Assembly (NCBI RefSeq): GCF_003086415.1
Contig: NZ_QEFP02000014.1
Coordinates: 1-32,000, forward strand
Source of the DNA: Candidatus Nanobsidianus stetteri
Lineage (GTDB): Archaea; Nanobdellota; Nanobdellia; Nanobdellales; Nanobdellaceae
DNA: 32,000 nucleotides
Direction of reading: 5' to 3'
The notes under the pieces are model-generated. The model searched no databases. It was not told the DNA's origin and worked only from the letters and a program-made list of their open reading frames with translations. A program made the position numbers and the translations under genes. This document shows, piece after piece, positions 5,200 to 23,443 of the stretch (positions within the stretch are counted from its first letter, which is position 1; each line of letters starts with the position of its first letter).

Positions 5200-5274
5200 G
5201 GACCCGTAGTTCAGCATGGATAGAATTCTCGGTTGCGGTCCGAGAGGTCCGGGGTTCGAATCCCCGCGGGTCCA
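5200..5274 (+). tRNA. tRNA-Arg (anticodon GCG)
   Basis: Manual cloverleaf: acceptor GGACCCG/CGGGTCC, anticodon stem CTCGG/CCGAG with loop TTGCGGT, T arm CGGGG-TTCGAAT-CCCCG, discriminator A. No CCA is encoded. Confidence 0.9.
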
Positions 5275-5334
5275 TATATAAATTTTTGTTACTAAAAGAT
5301 AACAATAAAAGTATTTTTCAATATTATAATAAAA
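5275..5334 (+). promoter_or_regulatory. Promoter-like module, copy 1 (degenerate palindrome GTTACTAAAAGATAAC)
   Basis: 'tatataaatttttgttactaaaagataacaataaaagtatttttcaatattataataaaa' lies directly upstream of the ATG at 5335. The same module recurs at 6081 and 7234. Confidence 0.55.
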
Positions 5335-6000
5335 ATGTCTGAAATATACTATATAATCTTCGATACAATAGTTTTTGAAATAACAAGAGAAAATAATCTG
5401 GATAAAATACTAGCATATCAAATAGATAAAAAAGAATCTCCACCTTATATTTTTCTAACAGAAAAGAGGATACCTGAAGTATTAGAAATTTATAGAAAAA
5501 CTATAAGTGGACGTTATCCTGCGGCTTTTATATTCCCCTCACCATCAGTCGAAATAATTGGAAAAGCCACTTATTTTGATGATCAATTTTTCTTAATTGT
5601 AGCATATACAGAAGAATTACCACTTTATGTACCTTTTGATAAATTAATTAGTGTATCTAAAATAATAATTTATGAGGATGATCCACAAAAGATAAAGGTT
5701 ATAGGTGCTTGCGGATCGGATGCTTTAAATATTCTAATGAATAATAATAATTTAAATAATGATAATGATAAGAATAAGAAGGAGTTAAAGTTAAGACATT
5801 ATACTATAGATTTAAGGAAAGCCAATTTAAATAATCTAACCAGGTTTTTTATATACAATTCTGTAAATAAGCAAAGTAATAAAGATGGAGAAATGAAAGT
5901 AGCCGGCACGTATATTTTTATTGGTGAAGACGAAAATCTTTCATGTAAACAATCTTATATAGCTCCTAAAGATATTAAAATACTTGAATTTTATAAGTAA
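5335..6000 (+). CDS. Hypothetical protein, paralog A of the 7297..7998 product
   Basis: It aligns over its full length with the 7297..7998 product: FIFPSPSVEI/FIVPTPSIRI, FDDQFFLIVAY/FDEKFKLVVIY, DKLISVS/DKLIKVS, DALNILMNNNNL/DALDALINNNNL, IDLRKANLNNL/IDLREANLDDL, and an identical C-terminus NLSCKQSYIAPKDIKILE. I recognise no family. Confidence 0.75.
   Translation: MSEIYYIIFDTIVFEITRENNLDKILAYQIDKKESPPYIFLTEKRIPEVLEIYRKTISGRYPAAFIFPSPSVEIIGKATYFDDQFFLIVAYTEELPLYVPFDKLISVSKIIIYEDDPQKIKVIGACGSDALNILMNNNNLNNDNDKNKKELKLRHYTIDLRKANLNNLTRFFIYNSVNKQSNKDGEMKVAGTYIFIGEDENLSCKQSYIAPKDIKILEFYK
5934..5987 (+). repeat. 54-nt perfect direct repeat, copy 1 (3' end of paralog A)
   Basis: 'aaatctttcatgtaaacaatcttatatagctcctaaagatattaaaatacttga' is identical at 7923..7976. 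Confidence 0.9.
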
Positions 6001-6014
6001 GAATATAATTTCAA

Positions 6015-6080
6015 GCAATGGAGGGAATTTGAATCTTTAGAAGATCTTTTTGTCCATTTAGATTTATTCGATTAGAGATC
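6015..6080 (-). pseudogene. Decayed tRNA-Leu pseudogene (copy of the 8006..8089 gene)
   Basis: 6020-6048 'ggagggaatttgaatctttagaagatctt' matches 8012-8040 'ggaggggatttgaacccctggcggatctt' at 22 of 29 positions. All 7 differences replace G/C with A/T. The same flank 'aatataatt' precedes both copies. Weaker similarity continues toward the 5' half, and the stems can no longer pair. Confidence 0.6.
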
Positions 6081-6147
6081 TATATATAAATTTTATGTTA
6101 CTAAAAGATAGTAACAAATAAAAATCTTTTTACTATAATAAAATATA
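6081..6147 (+). promoter_or_regulatory. Promoter-like module, copy 2 (perfect palindrome GTTACTA-aaaga-TAGTAAC at 6097-6115)
   Basis: 'tatatataaattttatgttactaaaagatagtaacaaataaaaatctttttactataataaaatata' lies directly upstream of the ATG at 6148. Confidence 0.55.
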
Positions 6148-6960
6148 ATGGCATACTTAACAAACATGCTTTTTCCATATAGGGAAAGAAAAAGTGAAAA
6201 GTCAAATCTCACTCTTGATAGTATAATTAATAGTTCTAGAAATCCTGGAAATTATGAAAATACAAATTTCAATTATCCTAAAAAACCACATTATTATGCT
6301 ATAATTGTTTTAGGAGGAGGTCCAGAACATACTGAATATAGACTTAAAAAAGCAATAGAATTATACAAACAAGGAATTGCAGATTACTTGATTGTAACAG
6401 TTGGTGAAACCGATGTTTCTATTGCTAAAAAAATAATAGAAAATGCTGATATAGATAAAGATAAATATATAGTTGATGATAGATCTACAACTACATTGCA
6501 TAATGCTCTTTATGCTAAAGAAATACTTCGAAATTTAAATGTACCAAAAGGTACATTAACAGCAATATTAACAGAAAGTCCTCATTGTCCTAGAGCTAGG
6601 GATACATTTGACCTAATCTTTAGAGGAAAATATAAAATAGATTCAATTTGTATTGAGCCTCTTCCAGATCCATATATGTGGGGTAAAGAAGAAAAAATAA
6701 AAAGTATAAGAAAATACATTCATCCTTTATATCCCTCATTAATTATCTCCTTAACATATTCAGAAAAATATTTAAGTTATTTACCAGGAATGAATGAAGA
6801 AAAAGCAGAGAAAATTGTTGATAAATTTGTAAGATCTACATCAGATACTATTAGCTATTTATTTAATACATCCTTAAAATATGCTAATAATGTAAAAGAA
6901 TATATCAAGAGAGTACTTGGAAGTTATAGATCACATGTAAATGCATCTCCAAGTAGCTAA
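6148..6960 (+). CDS. DUF218 (YdcF/SanA-like) domain protein
   Basis: 'YYAIIVLGGGPEHTEYRLKKAIELYKQGIADYLIVTVGE', 'DDRSTTTLHNALYAKEIL' and 'AILTESPHCPRARDTF' fit the DUF218 pattern (vVLGgg..R...a..ly..g.a..ii.sG ... S.nT.eNa ... vTs.fHm.Ra). Confidence 0.75.
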   Translation: MAYLTNMLFPYRERKSEKSNLTLDSIINSSRNPGNYENTNFNYPKKPHYYAIIVLGGGPEHTEYRLKKAIELYKQGIADYLIVTVGETDVSIAKKIIENADIDKDKYIVDDRSTTTLHNALYAKEILRNLNVPKGTLTAILTESPHCPRARDTFDLIFRGKYKIDSICIEPLPDPYMWGKEEKIKSIRKYIHPLYPSLIISLTYSEKYLSYLPGMNEEKAEKIVDKFVRSTSDTISYLFNTSLKYANNVKEYIKRVLGSYRSHVNASPSS

Positions 6961-7233
6961 TAAATATAGTTAAATAAGATAATATGGGTCTATTATAAAT
7001 GCAAAATTAAAAATATAGAATTAAAGGAAAATAAATATTATGTATATGCAAATTTTCTCAGAAATCAATTATAACTTTTATATTCTTCAAAAATACTTGA
7101 AAAATCAAAAAATAGGAAATCAAAAATTAAAAATTATATACAAATAAATATATTTTTACATTTATTTCTTAAATAATACAAAAGGCTCTTTCTAAAAAAT
7201 CCTTTCAGTAAGTATTACTTTTTAAAACATCTT

Positions 7234-7296
7234 TATATATAAATTTTATGTTACTATAAGATAGTAATAAAAACTTTTTCATAATATTATGATAAA
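7234..7296 (+). promoter_or_regulatory. Promoter-like module, copy 3 (palindrome GTTACTA-taaga-TAGTAAT at 7250-7268)
   Basis: 'tatatataaattttatgttactataagatagtaataaaaactttttcataatattatgataaa' lies directly upstream of the ATG at 7297. Confidence 0.55.
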
Positions 7297-7998
7297 ATGC
7301 CTTCGTATATAACGCTTAAAGCAAGAGTATATTATATAACTAGAGATGGAGGTTTGTACAATATACATGCATATGTTGAATACAACAGGGGAAGAGAAAA
7401 AGAACGTAAATTCTTTACTTTGCAAACAGAAAAGGAAATTCCAAAAATAATATTTGAAAAATATAGAAAGATAAAAGATGAAGATAAATATTATTTTCCT
7501 AAGGTATTTATAGTACCAACTCCATCAATAAGAATAAGAAAAAATAAAAAAAACATTCCTAATAAAACAGCTATTCCTTTTGATGAGAAGTTTAAGTTAG
7601 TTGTAATATATGCAAAAGACCCACCCTATCGTATACGTTTAGATAAATTAATTAAAGTGTCTAGCATGAGAATTTACGTAAGAAAGGATAAACTAAGAAG
7701 GATGTATGTTGAAGGTTTTTGTGAACCTGACGCTTTAGACGCTTTAATAAATAATAATAATTTAGAGTCAAAATCTTATAATATAGATTTAAGAGAAGCC
7801 AATTTAGATGATCTACTCAAGTTTATTAGATATGATGTTAAATACAATTCTAAAAATAATCAAAATAATAGAAATGAAGAAATGGAAAAAACTGGCCCAT
7901 ATATTTTTATTGATAAAGGTCGAAATCTTTCATGTAAACAATCTTATATAGCTCCTAAAGATATTAAAATACTTGAGATATATAAGATAAAAATATAA
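7297..7998 (+). CDS. Hypothetical protein, paralog C of the 5335..6000 product
   Basis: See the entry for 5335..6000. The two proteins are collinear and moderately similar, with an identical C-terminal 18 aa. Confidence 0.75.
   Translation: MPSYITLKARVYYITRDGGLYNIHAYVEYNRGREKERKFFTLQTEKEIPKIIFEKYRKIKDEDKYYFPKVFIVPTPSIRIRKNKKNIPNKTAIPFDEKFKLVVIYAKDPPYRIRLDKLIKVSSMRIYVRKDKLRRMYVEGFCEPDALDALINNNNLESKSYNIDLREANLDDLLKFIRYDVKYNSKNNQNNRNEEMEKTGPYIFIDKGRNLSCKQSYIAPKDIKILEIYKIKI
7923..7976 (+). repeat. 54-nt perfect direct repeat, copy 2 (3' end of paralog C)
   Basis: Identical to 5934..5987. Confidence 0.9.
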
Positions 7999-8005
7999 TT
8001 TTAAA

Positions 8006-8089
8006 TGCGGCGGAGGGGATTTGAACCCCTGGCGGATCTTATCCAATCGGACCTAAACCGACCCCCTTTGACCTCTCGGGCACCGCCGC
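8006..8089 (-). tRNA. tRNA-Leu (anticodon UAG), class II with a long variable arm
   Basis: The reverse complement reads GCGGCGG-TG-CCC..GGG-G-GTCGG-TTTAGGT-CCGAT-TGGATAAGATCCGCC-AGGGG-TTCAAAT-CCCCT-CCGCCGC-A. The anticodon loop TTTAGGT gives anticodon TAG. No CCA is encoded. Confidence 0.88.
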
Positions 8090-14820: not shown

Positions 14821-15417
14821 ATGGATGAATTTAATAAATTAAAAATATATCATATGAAAAAACTTGAGGAAGCTAAGGAAAAATATTTAGCAGATCAACC
14901 TATATATTATATTCTAGATCTTATTAATTCATTAGATTTCTTTTTTACAACATCTTCATGTGCAGGTAGGATAATTTTATTAAAAATACCAAAAAGTGGG
15001 AAAAAATTTGAGGCCGAATTTCTATTTAAATCCCATTATTATGTAAATTTTTATTATATATGGAATAAATTATTAGAAGTATATAAAAATTATGATGAGA
15101 AAATATACTTTAAACAAGAACCATTTATTTTGCATGTATCTTCAAAAAATATAGAAAGGGCATATGAACTATTAAATATTGCAAGAAAATCCGGATTCAA
15201 ACATTCTGGAATATTTTTGATAAATGATAAAAGGGTAATGGTTGAAATTGTTGGAAATGAAAAAATTGAAACAATTGTATCAAAAAATAGAAAATTATTG
15301 GTAGATAAAGAATATTTTTATAATTTAGTAAAAGAGGCAAATGAGAAGTTAAAGAATGTAAGAAAAAGAATAAATATATTTTATAAAAATCTTCTATCCT
15401 ATTATATAACAAAATGA
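14821..15417 (+). CDS. taw3: tRNA wybutosine-synthesizing protein 3 (Taw3/TYW3 family)
   Basis: 'FFFTTSSCAGRIILL' (the SSC-x-GRI motif), 'EPFILHVS' and 'ARKSGFKHSGI' fit the TYW3 family. Confidence 0.8.
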   Translation: MDEFNKLKIYHMKKLEEAKEKYLADQPIYYILDLINSLDFFFTTSSCAGRIILLKIPKSGKKFEAEFLFKSHYYVNFYYIWNKLLEVYKNYDEKIYFKQEPFILHVSSKNIERAYELLNIARKSGFKHSGIFLINDKRVMVEIVGNEKIETIVSKNRKLLVDKEYFYNLVKEANEKLKNVRKRINIFYKNLLSYYITK

Positions 15418-16887
15418 ATTATCACAATAATTATTCATTGTTTCATTATTTATTCCTACAAATTCATATAAATAATAATTGTATGTAAATTGATTATTTA
15501 TATTTAATTCTGAAACATTACATGTAGCATTAAAGTAATAATTTCCATTATTATTATAACATTCAGATATGGTTGTACATAAATTTGATAAATAACTTTC
15601 CAATGAATTTTGTGAATTTGAACAGTCAGAAGAATTTTTGTACGGACCAAATTGCAATGTTTCATTATTTATAGAGCAACTTACATTATTATAATTTATC
15701 TGAATATCTACAGGTATTAAAGCTGGATAATATCCATCAGTATAATATGCATAATTTTCTAAAATATTTTCTACAAAACTTGTACTAACTTCTACATTTT
15801 TTTCATTAATAATATTTACACCAGTTATATTATACCAATATCCATTGAATATGTTGATTTTATTCAATACTTGATAATTTAACTTTGATAAAATGGCACT
15901 TACATTATTTAAACATTCCTTCATATATTCACTATATATACTATTTACTATACATTGATTATTTACAATCTGCCCAATTGATTCACATGGTATTACGATT
16001 GTTACATTTGTAATATTTGGATCTTCTACTGGCAAAAGTTGAGATGTATATAGATCTAAAACATAATAATACGGATTATTGAATGAAAAATTTAAATATA
16101 AATTATCTCCGATTGTTTCTTCAGAATATGCACTTTGATATAAATCTATATAATTTGATTGATTTATTAAATTGTTATATATAAATTGAAATGTTTGATT
16201 ATATAAATAATCTATTAATTCATTATAATATAATAAAAAGGGATATATTGAATAACCTATTTGATTATTTAATTCAGGGAAAGTTAAACTTCTTTCATAT
16301 TTATTTAATACAAAGAAATAATATTGTGGATTTGATAATACAAAATTATTAGAACCATCATAATAGAAATCCTGATATGAAAAATTTGCATGTTTAAAAT
16401 TTAAATTTCCATTTAAATATCCGATTTCATTGTTTAAATCTTGACTTACAATGTTTTTAATACTAAAAAATATATTTTCAATATTTTGATAGTTGTTTAC
16501 ATTATTTAAAGGAATTACTGGGACACATAATGAATAAATTATGTTATAATTATTTCCATTATCTTCTATATTGGTTAGATTAAATAAAAAAGGAACTTCA
16601 CATTGAGAATAATAATTTGGAATATTATTTCCAAATATATAATTTATATTATATGTAGATCCTTTAAAAATATTTGTAAAAAGATTATTTAATAAATTAT
16701 ATCTAATATCAAATGGTATATAAACAAATAATATATATAAAAATCCCTGATATGCAATATAATCTTCACTTAAATATTTTAAAGATTGAGTTGCAATTTG
16801 AATCTGGGAATTTAAATAAAATATACCAAAGAGAACTAAAATTATTACTCCTAAGAATAATGCTACTGGTGCTAAAGATGTTTTCAT
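15394..16887 (-). CDS. Surface-locus protein, 497 aa, N-terminal TM anchor, Cys-rich and sequon-rich ectodomain (unknown family)
   Basis: TM 'APVALFLGVIILVLFGIFYL'. I count 12 Cys and many N-x-S/T sequons. It is the last gene of the minus-strand run. Confidence 0.75.
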   Translation of the reverse strand: MKTSLAPVALFLGVIILVLFGIFYLNSQIQIATQSLKYLSEDYIAYQGFLYILFVYIPFDIRYNLLNNLFTNIFKGSTYNINYIFGNNIPNYYSQCEVPFLFNLTNIEDNGNNYNIIYSLCVPVIPLNNVNNYQNIENIFFSIKNIVSQDLNNEIGYLNGNLNFKHANFSYQDFYYDGSNNFVLSNPQYYFFVLNKYERSLTFPELNNQIGYSIYPFLLYYNELIDYLYNQTFQFIYNNLINQSNYIDLYQSAYSEETIGDNLYLNFSFNNPYYYVLDLYTSQLLPVEDPNITNVTIVIPCESIGQIVNNQCIVNSIYSEYMKECLNNVSAILSKLNYQVLNKINIFNGYWYNITGVNIINEKNVEVSTSFVENILENYAYYTDGYYPALIPVDIQINYNNVSCSINNETLQFGPYKNSSDCSNSQNSLESYLSNLCTTISECYNNNGNYYFNATCNVSELNINNQFTYNYYLYEFVGINNETMNNYCDNSFCYIIG

Positions 16888-16918
16888 ATAAATTCAATAA
16901 ATTTTAAAATTATTAACT

Positions 16919-17398
16919 TTAAGTTGAATAACCACTAGTATAATTTACATAAAAGTTATATAATACTGTTGGTGGACAAACATAGAATGTATATGATTCA
17001 CCATTTAAATAAACATAATAATTTATATATTCTTTATTTGGACATGCACCAATGATTGTATTATTATTAAAATAGAATGATAAAATTGTAGCGGAATCAT
17101 TTAAATAATATAACTCTTCATTTGCCAATTCATTTATTATATAATTATCCAATGCTGTATTATTATAAAATCCTGCGTATATATCTATTACAGGTACAGT
17201 TACATTATCAAAATAAATTAAAGAATCTAAAAAACCATTTGCAGATTTATATTCAATACCAACAGCATTTAAACCTGCAATATTATTTAGTGTTGGATTT
17301 CCATAGGAAAATATATTAAAGATAAATATAAATAGTAGAACTATAACAATAATTACTGCAGCAATAAATGATAAAAAGAATCCAATTTGTATTTTCAT
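16919..17398 (-). CDS. Surface-locus protein, 159 aa, N-terminal TM anchor (unknown family)
   Basis: TM 'IGFFLSFIAAVIIVIVLLFIFIF' followed by an Asn/Tyr-rich ectodomain with 2 Cys. Its start overlaps the upstream stop by 4 nt. Confidence 0.7.
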   Translation of the reverse strand: MKIQIGFFLSFIAAVIIVIVLLFIFIFNIFSYGNPTLNNIAGLNAVGIEYKSANGFLDSLIYFDNVTVPVIDIYAGFYNNTALDNYIINELANEELYYLNDSATILSFYFNNNTIIGACPNKEYINYYVYLNGESYTFYVCPPTVLYNFYVNYTSGYST

Positions 17399-18243
17399 TG
17401 TATTTGAGTAATTTTACATGAAGATATATTTATTTGGCCTCCAGCAATTATATTACATGTTTCATTATATATTCCATTCATATAAAGATTTCCTACACCG
17501 TATAAAGATACTATTACTGGTTCTCCACTATCATATTCTGGTAAAGTAATATAATATGATGCTATTGGTTGAATATATACTTCAGTATAATATACAGTTC
17601 CATAAGTTGCAGTAGAATTGAGTATTTCAGTATTATTTATAAATTGATAGTTTTGATACATATATTCTGTCTCATTATATATATATAAACTATAATTATA
17701 GAAATAATTGATTAAAAATTGGTTTAAAGATGGTAGATTTTCGTATGTGTAATCTACATTATAAATATTATATGCAACATAATATGGATTAACATTTATA
17801 TCATTTTCAAAACTAAGGTTATATGGATCATATGAATATGAATTACTTATATTGTTAATATCATAGAAAAAGAAGTATATATAATCGTCATAAGAGAAAT
17901 TTAAATATGTATATATAACTTCATTTGATTGATTTGATTCATTAGTAAAATAATCTAATGTTCCTGAGATATTCATAAAGCATTGTTGATATACATTATT
18001 ATATTCATTGATAATATTTGGATTGGGAGCATAAAATAATAATAATGGATTTCCTGTATCTTCATATAAACAATAATTTAATCTATCAATTAATAAACTA
18101 TTTGTAAATTGCTGATATGTATATTCAGAATACGATTCAATATTAAATAATGCATATAATATTGCTACAATAAAAAATGCGAATATTATAACAACCGCAG
18201 CAGCAATATATTCAATTATATCTTTTAAAGATAATGATCTCAT
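17395..18243 (-). CDS. Surface-locus protein, 282 aa, N-terminal TM anchor (unknown family)
   Basis: N-terminus 'MRSLSLKDIIEYIAAAVVIIFAFFIVAILY' followed by an Asn/Tyr-rich, sequon-rich ectodomain. It has 4-nt overlaps at both ends. Confidence 0.7.
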   Translation of the reverse strand: MRSLSLKDIIEYIAAAVVIIFAFFIVAILYALFNIESYSEYTYQQFTNSLLIDRLNYCLYEDTGNPLLLFYAPNPNIINEYNNVYQQCFMNISGTLDYFTNESNQSNEVIYTYLNFSYDDYIYFFFYDINNISNSYSYDPYNLSFENDINVNPYYVAYNIYNVDYTYENLPSLNQFLINYFYNYSLYIYNETEYMYQNYQFINNTEILNSTATYGTVYYTEVYIQPIASYYITLPEYDSGEPVIVSLYGVGNLYMNGIYNETCNIIAGGQINISSCKITQIQ

Positions 18244-19352
18244 GATGTAGAAGATAATACTGATACATTTAAATATGGTTGGCCTCCAGATTGTACACCC
18301 ACCTTTGATAAAATAATAAACTCTGGAAATACTTGATTACCATTATTATCTACATTTCCTAAATCTAGTTTGAATATATTATCCTGTGAATTATCTTGTG
18401 AATTATAAATGTATGTAAAACTTGTATCACATAAATAATTATTACTACATCCATTATAAAATGTAAACTCGGGATTATAATATATTGACAATGTTAAATA
18501 TGGTTGATATACTGTATATTTTCCATTTGGAATTGACAAAAAGAGCCAATTAGTGCTTTGTTGTATAAATTGATTATAATAGCAACTTGCATATGGACTC
18601 GATGTAGCTTGCCAATATTGATATAAGGTAATTGATGCAGTAAATGCTAAATTAAATGCAAAACCAGCTACAAAATCAGCTGGAGGTGGTAAAACTTCAT
18701 CTAATATCATATCTCCAACCTGCATTATAGTAAATTCTGCAGTAGACCACAAGGTAGGTCCCACAGAAGATTGTAATGCATTAAATATATCTCCCCATAT
18801 GTTATAGTTTCCGGATGCATATTGTAAAAGTGTAGATTGATATGTATATAATCCATATGTACCAGCAGCAGCTATTGCTGTTTGTTTTGCAATTTGAGAT
18901 GAAGATCCAAATACTTTATTTAAAGCATTTAGTAAAGATGTTGTTTTACCACCATACTTTAATCCTGGCAGATATGAAAATACTTCAGCCATAAAAGAAT
19001 TTAATGCATCATCTGCAAGTTGTTGCCATAGATCATTTACATAACATTCTCCAATACTAACTAAAAAATCATTATTATTATATAAAGGAATAAATAGGGC
19101 GGATGATTGTATTGGAGGAATTATCCTAAATTCATAGAAAAATACTGGAGCATTTGTTACAAAAAATGCTGCTGTCATATTCCCAGGTTCTGATGTTGAA
19201 TATGTAATAAAACCAGCAACTTCCAATATTAAATAAGGATTATGTGTACCAAATATTCTTGCAATAATATATGGAAAATATATTCCTATTAGTGATACAA
19301 TTATTAAAAATATTGATGCTATTATTGCATCTAATAATTCATCAACATCCAT
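18240..19352 (-). CDS. Surface-locus protein, 370 aa, N-terminal TM plus an Ala/Gly/Ser-rich helical-looking middle region (unknown family)
   Basis: N-terminus 'MDVDELLDAIIASIFLIIVSLIGIYF'. The middle region ('QIAKQTAIAAAGTYGLYTY', 'DFVAGFAFNLAFTASITLY') differs in composition from its Asn-rich neighbours. Confidence 0.7.
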   Translation of the reverse strand: MDVDELLDAIIASIFLIIVSLIGIYFPYIIARIFGTHNPYLILEVAGFITYSTSEPGNMTAAFFVTNAPVFFYEFRIIPPIQSSALFIPLYNNNDFLVSIGECYVNDLWQQLADDALNSFMAEVFSYLPGLKYGGKTTSLLNALNKVFGSSSQIAKQTAIAAAGTYGLYTYQSTLLQYASGNYNIWGDIFNALQSSVGPTLWSTAEFTIMQVGDMILDEVLPPPADFVAGFAFNLAFTASITLYQYWQATSSPYASCYYNQFIQQSTNWLFLSIPNGKYTVYQPYLTLSIYYNPEFTFYNGCSNNYLCDTSFTYIYNSQDNSQDNIFKLDLGNVDNNGNQVFPEFIILSKVGVQSGGQPYLNVSVLSSTS

Positions 19353-19353
19353 A

Positions 19354-20295
19354 TTATGTAGAAACAGTTTCTCCTATGTATATATTAATATTTGCTGTAT
19401 TTCCGTTACTATTTACCTCTATATCCATTACTGTTGGTGGTAAAGAACCTGCAAAATATAATAATGGAAAGTTTATTTGGAAGTATTGGATAATATAAGT
19501 AAATGTTTCAGAACTTACAATTTCACCTTCAAGATTACTAAGCTGTATTTGAGGATTCTCTGGAAATCCTGACAATTCTACACATACTGATGGATTATAT
19601 GGCAAATTATTGTTATTTGAATTTATATTTGAACTTGGAGCACAAGATATAGAGCCACTTTCTTGATATGTATTACCATTTTCATCAATTGTTGATGTAA
19701 ATGTGCATCCATTATCATTACATGTTATTGTTGTATCATTTACTATAGTAAGAAAGAATGAAGAGGATTCTGGAAAGAAATAATCTATTATATTTACAAA
19801 AATTTGGAGACCACCTAAGTTCTTATTATTAGTAGAATATGCTAATAAACCAGCATTATCATTTAATCCTTGTATGTTTATATTTATTTGATTTATATTA
19901 CTATTTAAGGATATTTGTTTTACTAATTTACAAAATACTAATGCTGGTGCAAATATAATAGTATTTCCATTATCTGTCGTAGAAACATTCCAATATACTA
20001 CTTTAACGGATAAGAGACCTACAACCTGATTTGGAGGAAAACAATGATATAATTGCAAATACCATCCATTATTGTTTGTCAATACAAAAACATAATTATA
20101 GTCATAATTATTTATAAATACTTCTCCATTACCTCCATTATTTATATCATTAGCAATTGAATTTAAATATCCAATATATTTTGCATCATTTCCCATAGCA
20201 ACTCCAATAAATGTCACAATAATAAAGTATATTAAAACTACCAATACAATTAATACTATTATATCAAAAATTATTCTAAGAAAATCTCCTCTCAT
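19354..20295 (-). CDS. Surface-locus protein, 313 aa, N-terminal TM anchor (unknown family)
   Basis: N-terminus 'MRGDFLRIIFDIIVLIVLVVLIYFIIVTFIGV' followed by an Asn-rich ectodomain with Cys pairs. A 1-nt gap separates it from the genes on each side. Confidence 0.7.
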   Translation of the reverse strand: MRGDFLRIIFDIIVLIVLVVLIYFIIVTFIGVAMGNDAKYIGYLNSIANDINNGGNGEVFINNYDYNYVFVLTNNNGWYLQLYHCFPPNQVVGLLSVKVVYWNVSTTDNGNTIIFAPALVFCKLVKQISLNSNINQININIQGLNDNAGLLAYSTNNKNLGGLQIFVNIIDYFFPESSSFFLTIVNDTTITCNDNGCTFTSTIDENGNTYQESGSISCAPSSNINSNNNNLPYNPSVCVELSGFPENPQIQLSNLEGEIVSSETFTYIIQYFQINFPLLYFAGSLPPTVMDIEVNSNGNTANINIYIGETVST

Positions 20296-20296
20296 A

Positions 20297-20458
20297 TTAT
20301 CCTAATCCAGATTGATTTAATATTTTATATCCTACGCTTGTTACATTTGTCTGTATGGAGTTACTTGCTATGTAATAATAAAATATTATAGCTAAAATAA
20401 TTATTACTATTGCAATAATTAAAAATATTAAAAAGTTTATTGAATTATCAGCCTCCAT
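20297..20458 (-). CDS. Mini membrane protein, 53 aa (absent from the ORF track)
   Basis: My manual translation: MEADNSINFLIFLIIAIVIIILAIIFYYYIASNSIQTNVTSVGYKILNQSGLG*. Its ATG overlaps the upstream gene's stop by 11 nt (tATGGAGGCTGA). The TAA stop ends 1 nt before the next gene's start. Confidence 0.6.
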   Translation of the reverse strand: MEADNSINFLIFLIIAIVIIILAIIFYYYIASNSIQTNVTSVGYKILNQSGLG

Positions 20459-20633
20459 AGTTGTTATTATTTATACTATTTACAACATTTGTGCCATTTG
20501 TTTGCGGTATACTATTAAATAAATTTGCTCCACCTTTAAAATAAAAGTACATAAATATTGCTAATAATACTAGAGCAACTATAAATAATATTATTGCTAC
20601 TAAAAATGTATTTACTTGTGTTTTTTTATCCAT
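20448..20633 (-). CDS. Mini membrane protein, 61 aa
   Basis: 'MDKKTQVNTFLVAIILFIVALVLLAIFMYFYFKGGANLFNSIPQTNGTNVVNSINNNNYGG': a short polar N-terminus, one TM and a short Asn-rich tail. Confidence 0.65.
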   Translation of the reverse strand: MDKKTQVNTFLVAIILFIVALVLLAIFMYFYFKGGANLFNSIPQTNGTNVVNSINNNNYGG

Positions 20634-20772
20634 TTCCCCCTATTAATTGATATTGAGCAAATATATTTATATTTAGCCCTAATTTTGGTCCCAATATAAC
20701 AAAAACAAATATTAATATTAATACAGTAAATATCAATGCAAGAATTATCTTTAGAAGTTCTCCAGTTTCCAT
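20626..20772 (-). CDS. Mini membrane protein, 48 aa (absent from the ORF track)
   Basis: My manual translation: METGELLKIILALIFTVLILIFVFVILGPKLGLNINIFAQYQLIGGNG*. Its stop overlaps the next ATG by 8 nt (aATGGATAA). Confidence 0.55.
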   Translation of the reverse strand: METGELLKIILALIFTVLILIFVFVILGPKLGLNINIFAQYQLIGGNG

Positions 20773-20802
20773 TATAAATCTAAAAACTTTGCAATTTATA
20801 AA

Positions 20803-22074
20803 TTAACTTCCACCTGAACTTGAACTTGAACCTGAAATCGATGTTAATAGAATTGCCCTATTTCCCCCTTCATATGTATATTCAATTATTATGCCATTTG
20901 GTAATTGCATATTAGCTGGAATAATTATAACTTGATTCGGTGGAAAATTATTTGAAGTGGACCAGTTTTCATCAACATTACCATTTTGACCTACTTCATA
21001 TGAATTTACTAATAATTTATTATATACATTTGAATCTTGAGGATTTGAAGACATTACACTAGGATCTCTATTACTTAAAACCTGACAAGCAATATTGAAA
21101 TTACTATTATATATCACATTATCTCCATACATAACTTCTAATGGAACCTGATTATAATATTCCATCATATCTAACATACATAAAACATCATTTAATGTAA
21201 CTATATAGTTACTGTTATAGTCAAATAATAATAGGGCATATTCATTATGATTACCTGCTATAGTTACACTTTGTCCTAATGTTTCTCCATATGTATAAAA
21301 TAAATATTTTGCAATTAAATATGTTGCATATAAATTTTGACATTCCGATGATGTTGGATCACTACAATATCCTTGTTGTTCTATATAATTTGCATATGAT
21401 TGATTTAAATCGTTAAGCATTTCATTTACTTGAGCGTTACCAATATTGCTTAAATTCACAGCTACTACGCCTTCTGGAACTAAATAATATAAAATTGGGT
21501 CTTGTATCGCATGTGCCATATTATTTAAGGCATATGATAAAGCATCTAAGCCAAGTGTTCCAAATAATAAACCCGCACCTAAAGGATTTGTAAATACTTT
21601 TTTATATGCATTTCCAATACCAGATGCTATTTTATCTTTTGGAAAACCTCCATTCTCAATATCTTCAAATAGTAGATATTTCTTATTTATATTCTGTATA
21701 GTTTCTTCATCATATCCTATACTCTCCAAAAACTCTACATTCTCATCATAATTTGCCTTAATTCCAGAAACAATACCAGCAACGGTTGTAGCAATAAAAA
21801 CTCCTAATAATACATCATTTGCAATTGTTGCAGCATCAGATATTCCCTGTGCTACTGGATTTATAGTAAAACTTATACTTCCTGCTAATGCATATCCAAA
21901 TTTTGCTTCTGGTCTACCAGCATAACTAAGACCTTTTAATACATTGAAGAAAACTATTATTACAAATATTATAATAATAATTACAATAATAAGTTCTATT
22001 ACACTATCACTTATAGATTTCATATCATTTATAAAAACCTTGGATTTTATTAATTTTTTATAATGAATTTTCAA
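20803..22074 (-). CDS. Surface-locus membrane protein (unknown family), first gene of the minus-strand run
   Basis: The likely true start is the ATG at 22023 ('MKSISDSVIELIIVIIIIIFVIIVFFNVL'). The 51 nt upstream read 'cattataaaaaattaataaaatccaaggtttttataaatgat', which looks like a promoter. Further hydrophobic segments ('VLLGVFIATTVAGIVSGI', 'LGAGLLFGTLGL') are followed by an ectodomain and a Ser/Gly tail. Confidence 0.7.
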   Translation of the reverse strand: MKIHYKKLIKSKVFINDMKSISDSVIELIIVIIIIIFVIIVFFNVLKGLSYAGRPEAKFGYALAGSISFTINPVAQGISDAATIANDVLLGVFIATTVAGIVSGIKANYDENVEFLESIGYDEETIQNINKKYLLFEDIENGGFPKDKIASGIGNAYKKVFTNPLGAGLLFGTLGLDALSYALNNMAHAIQDPILYYLVPEGVVAVNLSNIGNAQVNEMLNDLNQSYANYIEQQGYCSDPTSSECQNLYATYLIAKYLFYTYGETLGQSVTIAGNHNEYALLLFDYNSNYIVTLNDVLCMLDMMEYYNQVPLEVMYGDNVIYNSNFNIACQVLSNRDPSVMSSNPQDSNVYNKLLVNSYEVGQNGNVDENWSTSNNFPPNQVIIIPANMQLPNGIIIEYTYEGGNRAILLTSISGSSSSSGGS

Positions 22075-22115
22075 TAATTATAATACTTAAAAAAATAAAT
22101 AATACTAAAAATTAT

Positions 22116-23345
22116 ATGAAAGATAAAATTAAGGCAATAGTTATATTTTTTATATTATCTTTGATAATGTTGAGTACAAAAATTATGGCACAAACAAATT
22201 TAAATGGCCAACAATATACAAATACATCAATTATAATAATAACTAATAATAGTCGTTTTGGCTATGGGTTTTCAATAACTGGTTATAATGGTCTTGTTTA
22301 TATTTATTATACAGAATTGCAATCATCAATTGCAACTATTAATGGTTTGATATTTAATGGAACTGAAGAAATGAATGCGCCTTTACCAAATTTCAATGAT
22401 TTAGGAGAAGGAAGTCCATTATTAGTTGAATTAAATAATGGATCATTAATGTTGTTATGGGGTGGTGTGCCAATGGGAAATTATAGTTTAAATAATTTAA
22501 CAATTCTTCTTCAAGCTTCAATATTAAATAATAATGTTTGGGGACCTGTTATTAATTTAACAAACAATGGTGATGCATTAAGTTATTATAGTGATGGAAA
22601 TTATATATATTTAGTTTATGAACCTACATTATCCCTTACATATAATAATACAATACTTGAAGAATTAACACTTTCAGGCAATGTTGTTAAATCTTTAAAT
22701 ATTCCGGGTATTGTTGGTATTGTTTCTGCAAATAATGGTTATGCTATTGTTCAATTTGTAAATAGTACTTATGCTTTAATAAACATAAACAATGGAAGTA
22801 TCGAATTTGTAAATGCAACAATTATTGGTTTTATTGGTAATTCTTTATATCAATTTTATAATGGAGTATTAACAATTAATCAAAATTTAACATTTAATTT
22901 GCCAATATATGAAAGTGCATTTCCGATATCATGGAATAATGGATATGTTATAATTGCATGGAGACCTGGTTTATTAAGTGTATACTATTGGAATGGTACA
23001 GAATTACAGCCAGTTGTTAATTATACAGTTCAATTTACAATAATTCCAAGAGCGACAATTTTGAATAATAATCTTTATTTAGCATGGTTTGGATTAAATA
23101 ATATTTCAACGAGTCAAGGTTCAATATATATGGCAATAACACCATTACCTTATCAAATAAATCAATATAATAATATAACAACAACTAATAGTACTATAAA
23201 TAATACTTCTACAATATCAACTTCTAATACTTCCTCATATAATTCAATACAAAATACTACATCGAATAAATCTTTATTTAGTTCAATACCAATTTGGGTT
23301 ATTATAATAGTAGTTGGTATTGTTGTATTTTTTATTTTATATTAG
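22116..23345 (+). CDS. Secreted protein with about seven repeated beta-blade-like units, a Ser/Thr/Asn-rich stalk and a C-terminal TM anchor (unknown family)
   Basis: Signal peptide 'AIVIFFILSLIMLSTKIMAQ'. Motifs recur at about 40-50 aa spacing: 'GYNGLVYIYYTE', 'NNGSLMLLWGG', 'DGNYIYLVYEP', 'NNGYAIVQFVN', 'GNSLYQFYNG', 'NNGYVIIAWRPG', 'NNNLYLAWFG'. The linker is 'TTTNSTINNTSTISTSNTSS' and the C-terminal TM is 'IPIWVIIIVVGIVVFFILY'. Confidence 0.75.
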   Translation: MKDKIKAIVIFFILSLIMLSTKIMAQTNLNGQQYTNTSIIIITNNSRFGYGFSITGYNGLVYIYYTELQSSIATINGLIFNGTEEMNAPLPNFNDLGEGSPLLVELNNGSLMLLWGGVPMGNYSLNNLTILLQASILNNNVWGPVINLTNNGDALSYYSDGNYIYLVYEPTLSLTYNNTILEELTLSGNVVKSLNIPGIVGIVSANNGYAIVQFVNSTYALININNGSIEFVNATIIGFIGNSLYQFYNGVLTINQNLTFNLPIYESAFPISWNNGYVIIAWRPGLLSVYYWNGTELQPVVNYTVQFTIIPRATILNNNLYLAWFGLNNISTSQGSIYMAITPLPYQINQYNNITTTNSTINNTSTISTSNTSSYNSIQNTTSNKSLFSSIPIWVIIIVVGIVVFFILY

Positions 23346-23346
23346 C

Positions 23347-23353
23347 TTTTTTT
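23347..23353 (+). terminator. Oligo-T tract immediately after the stop codon, possible archaeal terminator
   Basis: 'tagcttttttta': a T7 run starts 2 nt after the stop. Support is weak given the AT-rich background. Confidence 0.3.
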
Positions 23354-23443
23354 AGATTATGAAATTAAAAATATTTATAAAATTTTTATAAAAGATTTTA
23401 TTCATTTAATAATTATGAATATAGTTATATTTTTAAAATTTTA

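Follow-up and report, generated by a model that had tools for sequence, protein, structure and literature searches.

Archaeal promoter-operator units of the MDR1, Phr, LrpA, TrmB or SurR type carry a palindrome for a dimeric transcription factor that overlaps the transcription factor B recognition element (BRE), the TATA box or the start site, and such a site recurs upstream of the genes that make up a small regulon. Repeats resembling such units were analysed in a 32,000-nt stretch of DNA (contig NZ_QEFP02000014.1, positions 1 to 32,000; hereafter the window; GC content 24.3%). On the basis of neighbouring genes and near-identical public contigs, the window is placed in the Nanopusillus/'Nanobsidianus stetteri' group, Nanoarchaeota of acidic hot springs within the Nanopusillaceae. 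Between a tRNA-Arg and a tRNA-Leu gene, each of three plus-strand genes is preceded by a similar module of 60-67 bp. These repeats are read here as the 5' control regions of three single-gene cassettes, each with its own promoter-operator, with a probability of about 0.6. Like the described units, the module holds a short inverted repeat whose distance to the ATG is fixed (46-52 nt, measured from the left arm GTTACTA), lies beside AT-rich TATA-like boxes, conserves its arms over its spacer and is repeated before several genes that belong to two unrelated families. Unlike them, its copies were found in one locus only rather than scattered over the genome, and its right arm and spacing change with cassette type. 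To our knowledge the module sequence matches none of the published archaeal operator motifs, and no description of the tRNA-Arg/tRNA-Leu locus was found in the searchable literature.

The interval is anchored on the left by tRNA-Arg(GCG) (5200-5274, plus strand; ARAGORN, and Rfam tRNA with 60.4 bits) and on the right by tRNA-Leu(UAG) (8006-8089, minus strand; ARAGORN and Rfam), which is followed by the gene for alanyl-tRNA synthetase (AlaRS). A preliminary reading of the letters alone (the sequence-only reading) had described three modules ahead of two paralogs and a DUF218 gene, and the analysis bore this out. Modules at 5275-5334, 6081-6147 and 7234-7296, all on the plus strand, precede open reading frames (ORFs) at 5335-6000 (221 aa), 6148-6960 (270 aa; Pfam PF02698, E = 1.5e-16) and 7297-7998 (233 aa), respectively. 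The first and third of these plus-strand genes are paralogs (42% identity, E = 7e-43) and are labelled PAR1 and PAR3 of a family PAR. The first module always begins at the base directly 3' of tRNA-Arg, and the junction is the same in related contigs.

All three copies share one layout. Copy 1 (PAR1 type), a variant seen again in more than 10 contigs, consists of an A-box (TATATAAATTTTT, 5275-5287), the left arm GTTACTA (5288-5294), a spacer (5295-5299), a degenerate right arm TAACAAT (5300-5306), a AATAAAAG box (5304-5311, or -31 to -24 from the ATG), a T-run (5312-5319) and ATATTATAAT (5320-5334). Copy 2 (DUF218 type) has its A-box at 6081-6095, a perfect palindrome of GTTACTA (6097-6103) and TAGTAAC (6109-6115), a AATAAAAA box at 6117-6124 (-31 to -24), a T-run at 6125-6132 and a last segment at 6133-6147. 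Copy 3 (PAR3 type) comprises an A-box at 7234-7248, GTTACTA at 7250-7256, the spacer TAAGA at 7257-7261, TAGTAAT at 7262-7268, a AATAAAAA box at 7266-7273 (-31 to -24), a T-run at 7274-7280 and a last segment at 7281-7296. The palindrome had been given as GTTACTA-N5-TAGTAAC, perfect in one copy and increasingly degenerate in the others, a short way upstream of the ATG; mismatches to it number zero in copy 2 (6097-6115), one in copy 3 (7250-7268) and three in copy 1 (5288-5306), and it spans -47 to -29 in copies 1 and 3 and -51 to -33 in copy 2. Elsewhere in the window no palindrome site with fewer than three mismatches was found, and two further sites with three mismatches are as many as chance predicts (2.4 expected). 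Over 38 nt, copy 2 matches copy 3 at 95% identity; over 55 nt, copy 1 shares 73% identity with copy 2. Because the genes that they accompany are either non-homologous (PAR and DUF218) or 42% identical, module identities of 73-95% lie above chance. Set against that module range, the associated proteins are unrelated to each other or 33-57% identical.

Related material amounted to about 45 contigs, and 30 distinct modules were aligned. Block A, (T)ATATAAATTTT, is conserved and becomes degenerate in some tRNA-adjacent copies (e.g. contig L072). The left-arm block TGTTACTA is almost invariant, the spacer block (5-7 nt) is variable and the right-arm block occurs in three main variants (TAGTAAC, TAGTAAT and TAACAAT). 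Blocks C (AATAAA(A)) and D (TTTT(T)) are invariant, and block E (ATATTAT-like) and the ATG of the start block are conserved; AATAAA, TTTT and T.T.ACTA are present without change in all 30. Among 22 distinct cores, 13 spacer variants, 6 right-arm variants and 3 left-arm variants were counted, numbers that are biased in that most copies were found with a degenerate search pattern in which the arms were fixed. Arm substitutions are uncompensated (GTCACTA/TAGTAAT, GTTACTA/TGGTAAC and GTTACTA/TAGCAAC). The variable spacer, the conserved arms and the uncompensated arm changes together fit recognition by a protein better than a hairpin. An inverted repeat with conserved arms and a free spacer was found to overlap the candidate core promoter, with the reservations that the variant count carries this search bias and that the PAR1 type is degenerate. 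In the upstream regions at L055 2425, L041 6530 and L061 1536, the palindrome spacer is an A-run of 5, 6 or 7 nt depending on the strain, and such a change in length could reflect slippage that alters the spacing of the half-sites.

The occurrence of the module was surveyed by scanning one genome per species with the exact core and a metagenome collection with a degenerate 23-nt pattern. The exact core was found once per genome in two Nanopusillus genomes, each time directly after tRNA-Arg; the remaining matches were single chance ones in unrelated organisms, plus one isolated match in Nanobdella. This last match (L006) was tried as a real module and taken as chance, since it lies just past the stop codon of a DUF655 gene and no gene follows. 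The degenerate pattern returned 62 loci, among which all low-GC Nanopusillus-type matches precede a PAR or DUF218 gene of the tRNA-Arg/tRNA-Leu interval. When the cassette genes were taken as the starting point, a module was present before 61 of 61, including 14 whose module falls outside the search pattern, and before 10 further cassette genes (L104, L106 and L107), or 71 of 71 in total. No module precedes the unrelated minus-strand genes of the interval (a DUF2341-like gene of 375 aa and an unannotated ORF of 508 aa), and none was found in the viral sequences of IMG/VR. The possibility that the module is a promoter of the ordinary kind, raised with the sequence-only reading as a danger to it, did not hold, given this restriction to PAR and DUF218 genes and a sequence unlike the TATA-like motif of other window genes. 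By its distribution, the module is taken to be a locus-specific control region and not a generic promoter.

The core promoter was assigned tentatively by position, a TATA box in archaea being centred about 26-27 bp ahead of the transcription start. Block C lies at -31 to -24 from the ATG in 3 of 3 window copies, which suits the leaderless geometry of other genes. About half of the other genes have a TATA-like box (ATYTTTTWAA) that starts at -36 to -27 from the ATG, and leaderless mRNAs therefore seem usual. The alternative box, TATATAAA, lies at -61 to -54 in copy 3 and as far as -65 to -58 in copy 2. Of the earlier assignment, the promoter-like position of the palindrome stood, whereas TATATATAAA as the TATA box is now slightly disfavoured; geometry and conservation lean towards AATAAA at -31 to -24, with the palindrome over or just upstream of the BRE. 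In L072, no TATA-like A-box is present and the remainder of the module is kept. Block C would then be the TATA box of a leaderless mRNA, with the right arm at the BRE position and block A mainly an oligo-T terminator; this arrangement is modestly preferred, because the strain Nst1 and L072 keep blocks C to E and the dead copy in L103 keeps only the tRNA-adjacent block A. A divergent PAR gene that lacks the module has TTTTAAAAAT at the position of block C. In the somewhat less probable alternative, block A would be the TATA box, the palindrome would lie over the start site and the mRNA would carry some 30 nt of leader. At the canonical place, the ATYTTTTWAA motif of the other genes does not score on the module, and a position weight matrix from those genes is too weak to choose between the candidate boxes. 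The operator logic is the same under either assignment, and the palindrome sits where archaeal regulators act.

Under the preferred promoter-operator reading, each module would be a self-contained promoter. The AATAAA(A) box at -31 to -24 would be bound by the TATA-binding protein (TBP) to give a leaderless mRNA, and the preceding 6 nt (GATAGT, GATAAC or AGTAAC) would occupy the BRE position. The inverted repeat, which overlaps or abuts the BRE, would be bound as an operator by a single dimeric transcription factor that turns all cassettes on or off jointly; a repressor that competes with transcription factor B (TFB) and TBP is the most likely kind. The upstream TATATAAATTTT(T/A) box would mainly end the preceding transcript, either that of tRNA-Arg or that of the previous cassette. 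As near-identical direct repeats, the modules would also be substrates for homologous recombination, through which cassettes could be deleted, duplicated and swapped between strains. The DNA-binding proteins encoded near the locus are generic (a winged helix-turn-helix ATPase and zinc-finger proteins).

Several observations weigh against this reading. The right arm of the PAR1 type, TAACAAT, agrees with the palindrome at 4 of 7 positions only, the spacer measures 5, 6 or 7 nt depending on the cassette, which a rigid dimer would not tolerate equally well, and in the DUF218 type the palindrome stands 4 nt farther from the box. AATAAAA agrees poorly with the T-run TATA motif usual in this genome, and both TATA assignments depend on geometry in a genome that is 76% AT. 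The search bias noted above also bears on the variant counts of spacer and arms, and the absence of the module elsewhere in the genome was checked with exact patterns only, in few representative genomes. Finally, among close strains the non-coding spacers between cassettes are about as conserved as the modules. The constraint is therefore visible only in comparisons between cassettes, where gene conversion is an alternative explanation.

The proposal that the interval is accessory was supported, in that it holds 0 to 4 cassettes in differing orders while the flanking genes are 90-100% identical. It contains a decayed module only (L103), one PAR gene (at least 8 contigs), one DUF218 gene (L073), DUF218-PAR (L037, L075, L079 and L094), PAR-PAR (L041), PAR-DUF218 (L097), PAR-DUF218-PAR (the window, L044, L055 and L070), PAR-PAR-DUF218-PAR (L104 and L106; L063 is cut at its left end) or cassettes together with unrelated minus-strand ORFs (L014, L052, L072 and L107). 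All cassette types were found both internally and abutting tRNA-Arg. The window and L065 agree completely (100%) over tRNA-Arg and module 1, fall to about 50-70% identity over PAR1 and return to 85-100% from module 2 onward, so that the divergent segment has modules as its borders. The empty site of L103 (8570-8736) leaves about 167 nt between tRNA-Arg and tRNA-Leu, which contain the opening codons of DUF218 and the decayed remains of a DUF218-type module, its left arm now ATTACTA and its ATG now ATA. With the gene lost, the palindrome, blocks C to E and the ATG have decayed there, and the tRNA-proximal A-box is intact.

More distantly related organisms carry other genes at this place. In YN1 the same interval holds an NTP-transferase gene. 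In Nanobdella aerobiophila (L101, 10020-12913), four tandem nucleotidyltransferase/HEPN pairs resembling MNT-HEPN toxin-antitoxin systems lie just past the equivalent interval, between tRNA-Leu and AlaRS. Since its content differs among the contigs, YN1 and Nanobdella, the interval is a long-standing plasticity spot in Nanopusillaceae. Nanobdella aerobiophila also has, between the same tRNAs, a 184-aa ORF with GTTACTA 47 nt before its ATG, followed by GATAATAATAAA (L101, 9215-9263); this GTTACTA may be a remote relative of the module, and no PAR homology of the 184-aa protein was detectable (hhalign probability 0.1%).

The spacers between cassettes were also compared. In the window, 273 nt of non-coding sequence follow DUF218 (6961-7233); this spacer differs between strains by an indel of about 120 nt (7046-7165) and contains a 42-nt direct repeat (6997-7038 and 7110-7151). 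In L041 (6065-6529) and at the equivalent places of L055, L060 and L097, a conserved non-coding spacer of 380-465 nt separates the first PAR gene from the next module. These long spacers are 73-93% identical to one another and could possibly be a dead cassette; with tblastn, neither they nor the spacer at 6961-7233 gave a significant protein remnant, the long ones yielding weak PAR-like traces (E about 0.1-0.3).

How the array arose is indicated by a decayed, 5'-truncated copy of tRNA-Leu that follows PAR1 (6009-6066, minus strand, the orientation of the real gene), of which the 3' part was recovered by local alignment. The alignment score of 15 compares with a shuffle mean of 6.3 (standard deviation 1.06), none of 2000 shuffles scored as high, and the remnant reaches z-scores of 9-11 in L044, L063 and the window alike. 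Downstream of PAR1, the next 80 nt extend the homology with the PAR3 3' end into this remnant in a collinear manner. PAR1 and PAR3 are collinear together with their modules and 3' flanks, and copy number ranges from 0 to 4, as in tandem segmental duplication. A decayed tRNA-Leu inside the array therefore points to growth by tandem duplication and not by insertion of mobile DNA. In several contigs GGGTCCA, the last 7 nt of tRNA-Arg, stands before an internal module; no significant tRNA-Arg remnant was detected before internal modules beyond this heptamer, which alone is statistically not decisive. On these alignments, the simplest history would begin with a tandem duplication that took in the entire interval, with one end at the tip of tRNA-Arg and the other in the middle of tRNA-Leu, and would continue with divergence, replacement of a gene (by DUF218) and homologous recombination between modules. 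Since the modules are direct repeats, changes in copy number are thereby explained. The suggestion that the region was formerly mobile was not upheld, there being no integrase, no viral relative and no compositional (GC) shift. The accompanying remark that no integrase is present was correct: domain searches found no integrase or recombinase domain in the window, and the Pfam hits listed for genes beside related loci include neither family.

One PAR gene lies in another context. In Nanobsidianus stetteri Nst1 (L033, 9948-10000), the gene is preceded by PCNA, a histone gene and a 200-aa ORF, and its module is cut exactly within the palindrome spacer (TTTTTTATAATATTT|AGATAGTAAT). Other sequence takes the place of the A-box and left arm; the segment from the right arm through the ATG is kept, its right half being identical to window copy 3, and the gene is intact.

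The locus was compared with known kinds of variable region. Its behaviour is that of a plasticity region anchored at tRNA genes and composed of tandem paralogs. As in tRNA-flanked plasticity regions and hypervariable islands, the array is anchored at tRNA genes, its content varies among strains with flanks of 90-100% identity, it includes a partial tRNA copy, and YN1 and Nanobdella have other accessory genes there. Unlike such islands, it has neither an integrase nor a difference in composition, its units are single genes of 0.8-1.2 kb, and its partial tRNA would stem from tandem duplication of the whole interval, not from an att site. An integrative element or genomic island at a tRNA gene was rejected, given the lack of an integrase, a GC content equal to that of the surroundings and a content homologous to resident cassettes. 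Integrons share with the array tandem single-gene cassettes, a repeated element with an inverted repeat, and strain-variable number and order; the array differs from them in lacking an IntI-type integrase and attI, in having its repeat 5' of the gene in a promoter-like form (the cassettes are not promoterless), and in a cassette repertoire limited to two protein families. An integron was likewise dismissed, with no adjacent integrase, no attC-type 3' hairpin and a weak fold no better than shuffles. A repeat resembling a miniature inverted-repeat transposable element (MITE) was set aside, the copies not being dispersed but confined to one interval, and a structured cis-regulatory or non-coding RNA was discarded for want of an Rfam match, a stable fold or compensatory substitutions. 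The locus is considered to be none of these four, since the features that define each of them were looked for and not found. On the side of the genes, the locus also resembles tandem arrays of variable paralogs under diversifying selection (contingency loci): PAR paralogs are 33-90% identical in otherwise near-identical genomes and vary in copy number, and the locus shows gene-conversion tracts (47 nt) and pseudogenised copies (L104 and L096). It departs from these arrays in that PAR proteins have, by eye, neither a signal peptide nor a transmembrane segment, and in that no switching mechanism is evident beyond the variation of A-run length in the palindrome spacer.

Three other accounts of the module were weighed. 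The modules might resemble one another through tandem duplication and gene conversion, around an ordinary constitutive promoter in which the palindrome has no regulatory role. The decayed tRNA-Leu shows that the array did arise by duplication, the 47 identical 3' nt of PAR1 and PAR3 are a signature of gene conversion, the non-coding spacers of close strains are conserved like the modules, the palindrome is imperfectly symmetric with varying spacing, and one divergent PAR gene works without a module. Yet DUF218 is no duplicate of PAR and the module reaches up to its ATG, the palindrome spacer is far more variable than the arms, loss of the gene in L103 was accompanied by decay of the module, and the module is conserved across PAR subtypes of only 33-45% identity. 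Nanobdella too, in which the flanking DUF429 protein has diverged to about 65% identity, keeps GTTACTA at -47 in the same interval. This account is accordingly regarded as unlikely, while remaining the strongest of the three. For the modules to have stayed alike right up to the ATG, either a shared control function must be under purifying selection or gene conversion must operate, and we think that both act; conversion or recombination is indicated by the 47 identical nt at the PAR 3' ends and by the module of L087, which by eye resembles a mosaic of two module types.

The module could also be a site-specific recombination site with the palindrome as its core, which would amount to integron-like or tRNA-att-like shuffling of cassettes in a DPANN archaeon; this is considered improbable, as is the more specific version in which strands are exchanged within the palindrome spacer by a recombinase that is encoded elsewhere or not recognisable. 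It would account for junctions that always fall at modules wherever cassettes differ in presence or order, for the finding of every cassette type both next to tRNA-Arg and internally, for the Nst1 breakpoint inside the 5-nt palindrome spacer and for an array that abuts two tRNA genes and contains a partial copy of one. Set against these are the missing integrase or recombinase, both in the window and among the flanking Pfam hits listed, the absence of viral relatives, and arms of 7 bp with a 5-7 nt spacer, which are short for the sites of tyrosine recombinases. The repeat stands in a promoter-like context at the 5' end of the cassette rather than its 3' end, its hairpin has little stability (-2.6 to -7.8 kcal/mol at 37 °C; z from -1.4 to +0.7), direct repeats of 60-70 nt suffice for homologous recombination, and the Nst1 breakpoint is a single case whose reciprocal junction was not located. 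A role at the level of RNA is judged a shade more improbable still, whether the module acts as a hairpin or leader in the 5' untranslated region that affects how the mRNA is translated or how stable it is, or signals termination or processing of the upstream tRNA or gene. If TATATAAA were the TATA box, transcription would begin close to the right arm and yield a conserved A/U-rich leader, and TTTT(T) at 9-13 nt after tRNA-Arg resembles an archaeal oligo-T terminator and is intact in the empty site of L103. Rfam gave no match for the module (at E ≤ 1 only the two tRNAs were found), the predicted folds are no better than those of shuffles in an organism that is a thermophile, substitutions in the arms lack compensation, there is no Shine-Dalgarno sequence, and with transcription beginning about 30 nt before the ATG, most of the palindrome would stay untranscribed.

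The family PAR itself is an orphan. It forms 21 clusters at 90% identity, all from the Nanopusillus/Nanobsidianus group, and a profile search of 1.84 billion proteins returned 11 PAR representatives at 50% identity, all belonging to one small family. No relatives were found in Pfam, NCBIfam, PADLOC or the viral sequences of IMG/VR; PAR1 individually has no Pfam, NCBIfam or PADLOC match and PAR3 no Pfam match. An AlphaFold2 model of PAR3 is beta-rich (predicted local distance difference test, pLDDT, 77; predicted template modelling score, pTM, 0.78), and Foldseek comparison of the PAR model with the PDB and BFVD gave no match at E ≤ 0.001, with low-TM hits resembling single-stranded DNA-binding/oligonucleotide-binding (SSB/OB) folds only. 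The last 47 coding nt identical between PAR1 (5941-5987) and PAR3 (7930-7976) encode the C-terminus CKQSYIAPKDIKILE, and this identity is likely to mark either a gene-conversion tract or a strongly constrained C-terminus. Subtypes at equal positions are 33-90% identical between contigs.

Among the neighbours of the interval in the window are genes for a thermopsin, a Methyltrn_RNA_2 methyltransferase, a DUF429/RNase-H-fold protein and an unsplit AlaRS. Farther along, at 15394-27270, nine consecutive ORFs have no Pfam match; that they encode surface proteins is a guess.

The search for the palindrome also brought up sequences outside the group. An identical 23-nt TGTTACTAAAAGATAGTAACAAA is present in unrelated hot-spring contigs of 34-41% GC (L062, L078, L081 at 2778-2800, and L091), followed after 2-4 nt by the ATG of a gene whose 121-aa product has a helix-turn-helix-like C-terminus, and is either an independent operator or a coincidence. 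In an organism of 36-39% GC (WLWD/WLWI contigs L038, L042, L054, L074, L076, L085 and L088), the variant TGTTACTAAAGAATAGCAATAAA recurs with conserved flanks GTATGTATAAAA and is a dispersed repeat family. A bacterial contig of 52% GC (L067, 2955-2977) carries a perfect palindrome, TGTTACTATAGAATAGTAACA, just upstream of a gene starting MNILHCDLDAFFASVEQ, which looks DinB-like; the palindrome may be an SOS-box-like site.

The locus reveals no new class of genetic element. It stands out against the background of the Nanopusillaceae, whose genomes of about 0.6 Mb hold very few regulators, and it is distinctive in ranging from empty to four cassettes between near-identical strains, in the private control sequence that all cassettes share and in an orphan family without detectable fold relatives. 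The array offers a strain marker for hot-spring populations, and the module a DNA bait for a nanoarchaeal transcription factor. Were the module a recombination site after all, the symbiont would have a dedicated means to vary a few host-interaction or defence genes. The locus provides a handle on what obligate ectosymbionts still regulate, and on the question of which genes are caught up in an arms race, be it in host interaction or in defence.

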